The notes under the pieces are model-generated. The model was given only the letters and a program-made list of their open reading frames with translations. It had not been told where the DNA came from and did no database searches. A DNA stretch of 64,000 bases from NCBI GenBank assembly GCA_050178015.1, contig JBFXGM010000012.1, forward strand, positions 31,967-95,966, given 5' to 3'. The translations under genes and the position numbers were made by a program. Source of the stretch: Mangrovibacterium sp. Lineage in GTDB: Bacteria; Bacteroidota; Bacteroidia; Bacteroidales; Prolixibacteraceae. Positions within the stretch are counted from its first letter, which is position 1. The number at the start of each line of letters is the position of its first letter. Positions 1-1,076 of the stretch are shown here, piece by piece.

Positions 1-578
1 GGGCCAAAAGGCTTCATTACCGGCAAGGCCGTGGCAAAATCCACTTTCCACGATTGCTCCTTGGTAAAAGCGATCGCTCCCGCCAGATCAATTTCCTGCT
101 CGTCGAAATGATGAATAGCTTCGTGCCCGTCATCAAAAACCACCACCGCCGTTTCCAATTGATTTTGCTCAGCGCCTTTATCAATTTTAAATGAAAGCAG
201 TCCGGCGCCCGCTGCATCTGGCTGAAGGTTGAACTGATAAATACCTGGCTGCACCGGTTCACCCAAAGCTTCTGCAACTGTCTTGCCACCAACAAGCAAG
301 GTTGCTTGCACGGAAGCCCCTTCGAGCGGCTTAAAATCAGTCAGGCGGGTGAAGTGAGCCAAAACGGACGCTTGCTCACCAACCACAAACGGATCGGCTT
401 CGGCGAACAACTCGAAATATTCACTATATACAAGCAGGGTTTGCTTTACCTCTTCGTGTTCATGATCGTGATCATACGAGGTTTCTTTTTCGCGACCATG
501 AGGTTCTTGATGTGCATGTTGATGCGAGCAAGCCCACAAAGCCAGACTTGCCACCAATACGATAAATCTTGATTTCAT
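1..578 (-). CDS. Efflux RND transporter periplasmic adaptor subunit, CzcB/CusB-like lipoprotein, His-rich N-terminus (3' end runs off the window)
   Basis: Not in the ORF track; my manual translation from ATG at 578 gives MKSRFIVLVASLALWAC-SHQHAHQEPHG...YDHDHEHEEVKQTLLVYSEYFELFAEADPFVVG...HFTRLTDFKPL...PVQPGIYQF...IAFTKEQSWKVDFAT, open to the window edge. Lipobox, His/Asp-rich patch and FTKEQxWKxDF pattern fit Bacteroidota heavy-metal RND adaptors. Confidence 0.75.
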   Translation of the reverse strand, partial: MKSRFIVLVASLALWACSHQHAHQEPHGREKETSYDHDHEHEEVKQTLLVYSEYFELFAEADPFVVGEQASVLAHFTRLTDFKPLEGASVQATLLVGGKTVAEALGEPVQPGIYQFNLQPDAAGAGLLSFKIDKGAEQNQLETAVVVFDDGHEAIHHFDEQEIDLAGAIAFTKEQSWKVDFATALPVMKPFG

Positions 579-656
579 AATTCATACTGATTGAAATAAT
601 TGACAGGAAAAATCGCAAAACGATCGTTCCTAAAATCCGATAAAAAACAAATTGAA

Positions 657-1064
657 TTATGAAAAAGCAGGTGGGGCGCGCAATCCGGAAGGATGTTCGC
701 AAAATATTTTGGGAAGCAGAAACAGCGGTTCGGCATAGGTTTCCACAACAAAATCAGGCAGCAAAAAATCGTCAACGCAGGCTTGAAGCAGGTAACAGGA
801 AGTCAGAAAAATCACCTTCGAGGGGACCAGCTCAACCTGAAAGGAACAATGTCCGGCGGGTTCCTGATTGTGCGAACAATGGCACTGGGGCAGGCCTTCC
901 TGCAGAAAGACCTGGTCCGCAACGACAGGATCGTGCTGATGTTCGAGCTGACAACTTTCGGAAAATAAATCGGAATGGTGGTGGTGCGGAACCACATTAT
1001 GCGCCAGGATGATCAGGTAAACCGACATCAAAAGAAAGGACACTATTTTCCGACTTTTTCGCAT
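657..1064 (-). CDS. Small exported/membrane His-rich protein with C-terminal GLRAPP (DUF2946/CruR-like putative arrest-peptide leader)
   Basis: 135 aa: hydrophobic N-terminus, AHNVVPHHHH, His/Cys-rich middle, ends PSGLRAPPAFS; directly upstream of and co-oriented with the RND adaptor. Confidence 0.75.
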   Translation of the reverse strand: MRKSRKIVSFLLMSVYLIILAHNVVPHHHHSDLFSESCQLEHQHDPVVADQVFLQEGLPQCHCSHNQEPAGHCSFQVELVPSKVIFLTSCYLLQACVDDFLLPDFVVETYAEPLFLLPKIFCEHPSGLRAPPAFS

Positions 1065-1068
1065 GCGC

Positions 1069-1076
1069 CAAAGATA
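1069..1076 (-). promoter_or_regulatory. Bacteroidota -7 promoter box TATCTTTG for the RAPP leader (probably leaderless mRNA)
   Basis: Forward CAAAGATA = TATCTTTG on the minus strand, only 4 nt before the ATG at 1064. Confidence 0.65.

Follow-up and report, generated by a model that had tools for sequence, protein, structure and literature searches.

We find that a small gene at the head of a metal-efflux operon in Mangrovibacterium sp. (assembly GCA_050178015.1) probably acts as the switch of that operon. The gene lies in a 64,000-nt stretch of contig JBFXGM010000012.1 (G000:C12:31967-95966, hereafter the window, whose positions are used unless a locus is named) and encodes a protein of 135 amino acids (aa), here called the leader. 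On balance, we favor the reading that this open reading frame (ORF) is a cis-acting arrest-peptide leader, i.e. a translational switch of a CzcCBA-like heavy-metal resistance-nodulation-division (RND) efflux operon. A ribosome that stalls on the RAPP motif near the leader's C-terminus would open an RNA helix hiding the start codon of the next gene, which encodes the RND adaptor. Positions 579-1076 of the minus strand span a promoter-like box, the 135-aa ORF, and a 78-nt spacer; together with the start of the adaptor gene, this region contains the following features, in the order of transcription:

1069-1076, minus strand: promoter box of the Bacteroidota -7 type, TATCTTTG, with a 4-nt gap to the leader ATG.
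657-1064, minus strand: leader ORF, 135 aa, a divergent member of DUF6769 (PF20558) by its PF20558 score, a 92%-identical ortholog, and a family profile.
996-1058, minus strand: signal peptide or transmembrane (TM) helix, residues 3-23, with basic MRKSRK ahead of it, from AlphaFold2 (AF2) and hydropathy.
975-989, minus strand: PHHHH motif, residues 26-30, right behind the hydrophobic helix.
669-686, minus strand: GLRAPP arrest motif, residues 127-132.
653-666, minus strand: 5' arm of a long-range helix (anti-start-region element), UUUUUCAUAAUUCA, comprising codons 134-135, the UAA stop, and 4 nt beyond.
604-632, minus strand: inner spacer hairpin, enclosed by the long-range helix.
573-584, minus strand: 3' arm, UGAAUUAUGAAA, the adaptor start region with its AUG (576-578), forming a 12-bp duplex with 653-664.
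1-578, minus strand: 5' part of the 510-aa lipoprotein RND adaptor gene, whose product is His-rich at both ends; this gene and the remaining operon genes continue in G000:C12:26724-31966.

The new evidence for this reading comes from the predicted fold of the mRNA. In the window, UUUCAUAAUUCA (653-664) pairs with the adaptor start region (573-584) through 12 perfect Watson-Crick base pairs (-11.5 kcal/mol), so that the end of the leader masks the adaptor start as in the wiring of SecM, MifM, and CutF. A perfect 12-nt complement between stop and start regions was attained in 2 of 20,000 shuffles, and the computed probability that the adaptor AUG is unpaired in the free mRNA is 0.00. The 5' arm spans +9 to +22 from the P-site codon of the predicted stall, and a RAPP-stalled ribosome reaches to about +16, i.e. 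it covers about half of the arm. The preliminary description of this region had reported a weak hairpin in the spacer (AGGAA../..TTCCT). That hairpin is real (-11.1 kcal/mol) but forms only the inner part of the larger structure, and it has no U run behind it, with a terminator scan also negative.

Analyses of 29 loci with related leaders reveal the same arrangement built from different sequences, including L028 (21 bp, with the AUG), L029, L007, L004, L006, L011/12, L015, L023, L030, and L040, and equivalent locus-specific helices are present in about half of the loci. We quantified how far the stall footprint (P-9 to P+16) pairs with the start region (-18 to +9), with shuffled sequences as a control. 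At least 4 expected base pairs join the two segments in 18/29 loci, compared with 0.1-2.6 for the shuffles (Fisher P = 1.7e-7). Moreover, the stop/start duplex has a mean energy of -9.4 kcal/mol when both segments come from the same locus and -5.7 kcal/mol when they are mismatched, and none of 20,000 permutations was as good (P about 5e-5). The effect is also specific to the position of the ribosome: the start region takes 8.0 kcal/mol to open when the leading edge of the ribosome is placed at -74, -44, or -14, and only at the RAPP stall is the cost lower, at 5.5 kcal/mol (Wilcoxon P = 2e-5). For the window alone, the cost falls from 11.7 to 8.7 kcal/mol at the stall position. An earlier measure of accessibility, the mean unpaired probability of the start region, was nearly flat in the window (0.41 to 0.39), and was replaced by these opening energies and positional controls.

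A Shine-Dalgarno-like sequence is found in only 1 of the 29 adaptor start regions. This near-absence fits the published view that initiation in Bacteroidetes is tuned by mRNA structure (PMC6847099). The sole locus with such a sequence is L038 (G667:C1), where AGGAG stands at the adaptor start and the RAPP proline codons, CCCCUCCUGUU, pair with AACAGGAG. Another variant is seen in the L004 spacer (G299:C2), which carries, besides the stop/start helix, a terminator-like hairpin (GACUCCUUUAAAGGGAGUC) followed by a U run, 7 nt past the leader stop; this may be an attenuation variant. As a general mechanism, attenuation by an intrinsic terminator was rejected, such a hairpin being present in 2/29 spacers only.

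The leader protein itself has the parts expected of an arrest peptide. Its sequence starts MRKSRKIVSFLLMSVYLIILAHNVVPHHHH and ends PSGLRAPPAFS, with EHPSGLRAPPAFS as the C-terminal stretch before the stop. As in other RAPP arrest peptides, an export or membrane-insertion signal is apparent at the N-terminus, with a basic n-region followed by a hydrophobic helix. Residues 3-23 are the sole region that AF2 predicts confidently (a helix with block predicted local distance difference test, pLDDT, scores of 82-96), and their hydropathy is 2.1-2.3. The rest of the leader is disordered in AF2 (69-sequence alignment; mean pLDDT 53.7) and no folded domain is predicted. At the other end of this small protein, the RAPP motif occupies R129-P132, with GLRAPP placed three residues ahead of the UAA stop (657-659). 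When the P- and A-site assignment is borrowed from the toeprint of CruR's RAPP (PMC12992588), the stall is expected with Pro131 (672-674) in the P site and Pro132 (669-671) in the A site. The protein contains 7 Cys and 11 His, and no CxxC or CxxxC. Taken together, these data bear out the preliminary description, which had listed a signal or TM segment, PHHHH, His/Cys clusters, and GLRAPP three residues before the stop in a 135-aa ORF; all are present, on the minus strand.

Both motifs are conserved across a large family. Pfam DUF6769 (PF20558) matches the leader over its full length (1-129 of 130) with 26.7 bits, which is 0.3 bit short of the gathering threshold of 27.0, and the leader shares the PHHHH, HxHD, and GLRAPP motifs of the family. 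In addition, our family profile A2, all 61 members of which match PF20558, scores the window ORF at E = 3.3e-11. The nearest relative, a protein of Gaoshiqia sediminis that is 92% identical, carries the NCBI name "DUF6769 family protein", and NCBIfam has no model for the leader. A word-based homolog search with the single leader protein returned one relative only, and alignment queries were then used. A profile search of 1.84 billion representative proteins yielded 1723 clusters, of which 151 representative homologs were examined. Among these, R[AG]PP is found in 147 (RAPP in 137 and RGPP in 10), exactly two residues before the stop in 125; GLRAPP is found in 122, and PHHHH in 140. The persistence of RAPP at the C-terminus of homologs was one of the checks proposed in the preliminary description, and it is borne out by these counts.

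Other homologs are just 20-32% identical to the window's leader, yet PHHHH and GLRAPP are nearly invariant, and H27-H30 are invariant or nearly so in alignments A1, A2, and A3. The spacing from the ligand motifs to RAPP is also constant within about 2 residues (111-113 for HHH, 82-83 for HxHDG, and 70-72 for CxLKQ). Such a pattern of low identity with fixed motifs and fixed spacing is typical of arrest leaders. The family occurs in 96/401 sampled genomes of the same order (65/237 genera) and in only about 2% of a phylum-wide sample; Bacteroides thetaiotaomicron has its own PF20558 locus.

DUF6769 has no detectable relation to DUF2946, the family of CutF and CruR. PF11162 (DUF2946) does not match the window's leader at E <= 1, and it matches only 4 of the 61 A2 relatives, at E >= 0.13. 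Homology between the two families was not detected, as an hhalign comparison of A2 with 7 DUF2946 proteins gave a probability of 7.5% over just 23 residues around RAPP. The DUF2946-type CxxC/CxxxC ligand about 45 aa from the stall motif is not found either, the conserved ligands of DUF6769 being 70-113 residues from RAPP. A separate observation concerns a small Bacteroidota protein of the NCBIfam family HYC_CC_PP at L009:1372-1767 on the minus strand (G083:C1; NF047658, 43.6 bits), whose weak similarity to DUF6769 (E = 1.2e-4) extends over the N-terminal two thirds of that family. It has PP about 18 residues before the stop and no RAPP, and may represent a parallel family of leaders or a remote relative.

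The leader is also consistently placed in front of a metal pump. The window's operon consists of four genes encoding the leader, the 510-aa lipoprotein adaptor, a 1037-aa RND pump, and a 393-aa outer-membrane factor, and its three structural genes were identified on locus L003 as follows:

L003, 13013-14545: adaptor (TIGR01730, 148 bits).
L003, 9887-13000, minus strand: CusA/CzcA RND pump, on G000:C12 just outside the window (TIGR00914, 810.7 bits against a cut-off of 701.45).
L003, 8725-9906: outer-membrane factor (OEP) gene (PF02321, 98 bits).

A CusA/CzcA-family pump with an adaptor and an outer-membrane factor is the composition of heavy-metal efflux RND (HME-RND) operons of the CzcCBA/CusCBA type. 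The preliminary description, which had placed a RAPP leader ahead of a metal-efflux operon, is supported in this respect. Its further expectation that homologs would sit upstream of metal transport genes also holds: a homologous adaptor follows the leader in 28/28 other loci, directly next to it in 27/28 (E <= 4e-42), and in all 29 loci analyzed the next gene encodes a lipoprotein with a His-rich N-terminus. The 28th locus, L023 (G527:C71), has a small His-rich lipoprotein ORF inserted between leader and adaptor. This extra ORF, a separate lipoprotein of about 85 aa that starts about 82 nt past the leader stop and ends in HNHDHHDHDHDHHH, resembles the His-rich N-terminal tail of the adaptor as a separate gene, and the anti-start helix of this locus targets the start of the extra ORF.

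The best PDB matches of the pump are CusA (489 bits) and ZneA (466 bits). The methionine triad of CusA (M573/M623/M672) is replaced in the pump by S, S, and H at the aligned positions. Given the lack of a Met triad, the His ligands of the leader, and the His-rich tails of the adaptor, the pump probably handles a divalent metal (Zn, Co, Ni, or Cd) rather than Cu(I). This agrees with one of the options in the preliminary description, a leader tuned to Ni/Co/Zn through His ligands. The TM4 motif of the pump reads AIGSLVDDAIIDVEN and lacks the first Asp of the CzcA-type motif DFG..DGA..VEN.

Several lines of sequence evidence point to transcription of the operon from a promoter ahead of the leader. 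In the 120 nt preceding the leader ATG, TAnnTTTG is found in 24/29 loci, at a distance of 4-30 nt in 22/29, compared with just 1/29 leader-adaptor spacers. These counts give little sign of the separate spacer promoter that the preliminary description had named as a possible refutation. The leader and the adaptor lie on the same strand, 78 nt apart (579-656); the absence of a box in 28/29 spacers and of a terminator in the window predicts that the leader is cotranscribed with the gene it is proposed to regulate. In the window, TATCTTTG ends 4 nt before the leader ATG, which implies a leaderless or nearly leaderless mRNA, and this spacing, already pointed out in the preliminary description, recurs in L011, L012, and L016. 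A scan of the window for sigma-70 promoters and terminators found nothing, which for the promoters is expected in Bacteroidota. There is no regulator gene within several kb of the leader. A riboswitch at the locus was also rejected, the only Rfam match being at chance level (E = 0.98).

Given these observations, we propose that the switch would work as follows. The operon would be transcribed from the -7 box just upstream of the leader ATG, as the conservation of this motif suggests, and the N-terminal signal or anchor would direct the nascent leader to the Sec translocon. In the free mRNA, 653-666 would be paired with the adaptor start region (573-584, AUG included), and initiation, which in the Shine-Dalgarno-blind Bacteroidota requires a start region free of structure, would be blocked. 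By analogy with RAPP in other bacteria, the ribosome would arrest at R129-A130-P131-P132 with Pro131 in the P site; an arrest with both Pro codons in the P and A sites was demonstrated for ApdA/ApdP (PMC10951233) and in the CruR toeprint (PMC12992588), and RAPP is depleted in Bacteroidota proteomes (observed/expected 0.14; PMC12992588). The parked ribosome would cover half of the 5' arm and free the start codon, a step for which there is computational and comparative support. Since one arm of the helix lies under the stalled ribosome, stalling should expose the adaptor start codon and turn the pump ON, and with an efflux pump as the target, the stall should last longer in the presence of metal. 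Its duration would be set by the portion of the nascent chain that has been exported: at the stall, PHHHH, EHQHD, and the Cys/His cluster would be 58-105 residues from the peptidyl-transferase center, i.e. outside the ribosome tunnel and probably outside the translocon, and metal bound there would, as proposed for CutF, cancel a pulling or folding force and lengthen the arrest. After release, three more codons would be translated, termination would follow, and the helix would re-form, turning the pump OFF.

Some observations speak against this reading. The window's leader is divergent: besides falling below the Pfam cut-off (26.7 vs 27 bits), it lacks 2 of the 3 near-invariant Cys of the family, and its HHH-to-RAPP spacing is 102 instead of 111-113, so that the sensor part may work differently in this protein. 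The direction of the metal effect is drawn solely from the analogy with CutF and from what an efflux pump needs, and CruR shows that the opposite metal response exists (PMC9426467). The demonstrations of RAPP arrest (ApdA/ApdP, PMC10951233; CruR, PMC12992588) come from outside Bacteroidota ribosomes. As for the RNA, about 40% of the loci have no clear stop/start pairing under the definitions used, the energy predicted to be gained, about 2.5-3 kcal/mol, is moderate, and in the window, once the long helix is removed, the AUG partly pairs again within another local hairpin.

Four other explanations were considered. The least improbable of them, which we nevertheless consider unlikely, is a true arrest leader that senses no metal: it would report export or insertion capacity or envelope stress, like leaders of the SecM, MifM, and VemP type, or would keep adaptor translation at a fixed, constitutive level, while the His/Cys motifs serve another purpose. 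A signal peptide with a C-terminal RAPP and a masked start region is indeed what monitoring substrates have (PMC12992588, PMC10987492), and the absence of two near-invariant Cys from the window's leader points the same way. However, the family is found only ahead of His-rich metal-pump adaptors, PHHHH and other His/Cys positions are kept at fixed distances from RAPP, and the locus shows no further metal regulator and no riboswitch. It is slightly less probable still that metal relieves the arrest, as in a sensor of the CruR type. The preliminary description had put this direction forward, i.e. metal promoting read-through that turns the pump on; the stall could also repress, e.g. via mRNA cleavage or decay. 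CruR demonstrates that metal can relieve RAPP arrest (PMC9426467), and metal-induced folding of an exported domain is expected to give a pulling force. By contrast, the conserved helix places the anti-start-region element under the stalled ribosome, where a stall exposes the start codon, and with this wiring an arrest relieved by metal would turn the efflux pump off at high metal. Coupling by termination and reinitiation is unlikely because of the 78-nt spacer. The RNA architecture, in which the stall unmasks the adaptor start codon, thus argues against the earlier proposal and fits the logic of CutF better (PMC9973294).

The two remaining alternatives appear improbable to a similar degree, and rank below the preceding ones. 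In one, stall and polarity would be the same and the output mainly transcriptional, with the stalled ribosome blocking Rho, or acting on an attenuator, and the helix being secondary. CruR operates by blocking Rho (PMC9426467), the last 78 nt of the window's leader have a weak rut-like skew (C 0.27 vs G 0.14), and 2/29 spacers hold a terminator-like hairpin. Against this, the spacers are 72% A+T with C about equal to G, the window has no terminator-like site, and the locus-specific complementarity of stop and start regions would be left unexplained; a Rho-blocking component acting besides the helix would in any case have the same polarity (stall = ON). In the other, DUF6769 would be a stable periplasmic or membrane metal-binding accessory of the pump, i.e. 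a chaperone or metal buffer, and RAPP a tail with no regulatory stall. The conservation of His/Cys motifs, length, and spacing could be read in this way, and small periplasmic metal-binding partners of RND pumps exist, with CusF being a neighbor class of CutF-like proteins. Yet no folded domain emerges from AF2, proteomes strongly avoid RAPP except where it serves arrest (PMC12992588), nearly all members carry the motif 2-3 codons ahead of the stop, and the mRNA pairing would have no role. We therefore retain the metal-prolonged arrest that unmasks the adaptor start codon as the preferred reading.

Two other features of this genome were noted. A divergently transcribed gene at 1138-1800 on the plus strand encodes a 220-aa protein resembling an outer-membrane beta-barrel (PF13505, weak, E = 2e-4); this gene and the leader promoter have a 73-nt intergenic region in common, and the gene pair is kept in G. 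sediminis (L041:3184-3846). Outside the window, a second arrest-type leader is found at G000:C9:94631-94996 on the minus strand (L042:3132-3497). This His-rich protein of 121 aa contains HVHVLSNGMVVRHAHPFGHDHDQEHDHEPHSH, and ends in LRGPPTC. Neither Pfam nor NCBIfam has a family that matches it, and a TATATTTG box precedes its ATG by 11 nt. It stands 201 nt upstream of a gene for a 783-aa TonB-dependent receptor, an arrangement like that of CruR.

If the proposed mechanism is correct, metal resistance in many Bacteroidales, including environmental genera of the Prolixibacteraceae type, would be switched on without a transcription factor, metal outside the cytoplasm being sensed by a peptide still under synthesis. 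Control by arrest peptides would then also reach a phylum in which ribosomes make no use of Shine-Dalgarno sequences and where masking of the start codon would be the only lever, and PF20558 would gain a functional label in genome annotation. The comparative RNA evidence makes for a precise and cheap design of reporter and compensatory-mutation tests. A wider proposal, which we put forward tentatively and with less conviction than that for the window's leader, is that about a quarter of Bacteroidales genomes use DUF6769 leaders as the main metal switch of their HME-RND pumps, without a regulator protein. Under this proposal, an exported His-based sensor of divalent metal would prolong a RAPP arrest refractory to elongation factor P (EF-P), unmasking a start codon, and not a Shine-Dalgarno sequence, on a possibly leaderless mRNA. 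It would then be the first arrest peptide demonstrated in a phylum blind to Shine-Dalgarno sequences, and would give the CutF principle a further origin, separate from DUF2946. The principle as such would not change, being already set by CutF, CruR, and two published surveys.

Among known systems, the window's leader would work most like CutF of Rhodobacter capsulatus (cutFOG), without belonging to its family. In cutFOG, metal leads to stalling, melting of a stem, and the ON state; in the CutF model, metal bound by periplasmic ligands of the nascent chain removes the pulling or folding force that releases the arrest (PMC9973294; 10.1101/2025.02.05.636593). In both systems, a small leader exported by Sec carries metal ligands and, at its C-terminus, a proline stall motif, the target detoxifies metal, and a stem with the intergenic region masks the start region of the next gene and is opened by the stalled ribosome; in the proposed model, they also share the sequence of metal, longer stall, and ON. 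They differ in protein family (hhalign 7.5%, over the RAPP tail only; no PF11162 match), in stall motif (RAPP, refractory to EF-P, vs PPP in CutF), and in ligands (mainly His, in PHHHH and HxHD, vs CxxxC). The masked element is the AUG with its A/U-rich leader here and the Shine-Dalgarno sequence in CutF, and the target is an RND adaptor and pump, with a metal that is probably not Cu(I), vs a multicopper oxidase.

CruR of Bordetella pertussis (Bp2923, DUF2946; Roy et al. 2022, PMC9426467) is likewise exported; its RAPP lies three residues from the stop codon, its ligand-to-RAPP spacing is fixed, it heads a metal-homeostasis operon, and there too the stall turns the downstream gene ON. It differs in controlling an uptake receptor, in having its stall relieved by Cu, in an output through Rho-dependent termination in a GC-rich 162-nt spacer, in a CxxC located 45 residues from RAPP, and in protein family and phylum. 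SecM-secA and MifM-yidC2 resemble the present system in that a ribosome stalled at the 3' end of the leader disrupts a helix hiding a downstream start region. There, the leader responds to the activity of export or insertion and the masked element is a Shine-Dalgarno sequence, whereas here the downstream genes encode a metal pump in an organism without Shine-Dalgarno use. In ApdA, ApdP, ApcA, and the RAPP/RGPP set of S. lividans (PMC10951233, PMC7897499, PMC12992588), RAPP likewise lies at the C-terminus of a small membrane or secreted protein whose gene precedes the one it regulates. Those examined experimentally act on Sec/YidC or Streptomyces genes, and the texts of these papers discuss no member that is linked to efflux or from Bacteroidota.

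The preliminary description had stated that no such system was described in Bacteroidota, which two surveys contradict. Ozturk et al. (2023) listed 5334 CutF-like proteins, of which Bacteroidota contribute 19%, and the neighbors include OEP, ACR_tran, and HlyD_D23 (PMC9973294). The source table of Fujiwara et al. (2025) contains DUF6769 proteins upstream of adaptors, and the source data of their Fig. 4B give "CusA/CzcA family" as 50 vs 7, while their main text never mentions efflux (PMC12992588). Our literature searches by the name "DUF6769" returned only an unrelated mention, and those on CzcI and RAPP nothing relevant. As such, the class is already published, both as CutF-like proteins (2023) and as RAPP leaders upstream of efflux adaptors (2025). 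What this analysis brings is the family-wide stop-to-start helix in a Shine-Dalgarno-blind phylum, together with the leader's own promoter as the likely driver of the operon and a DUF6769 family that has no detectable homology to DUF2946.

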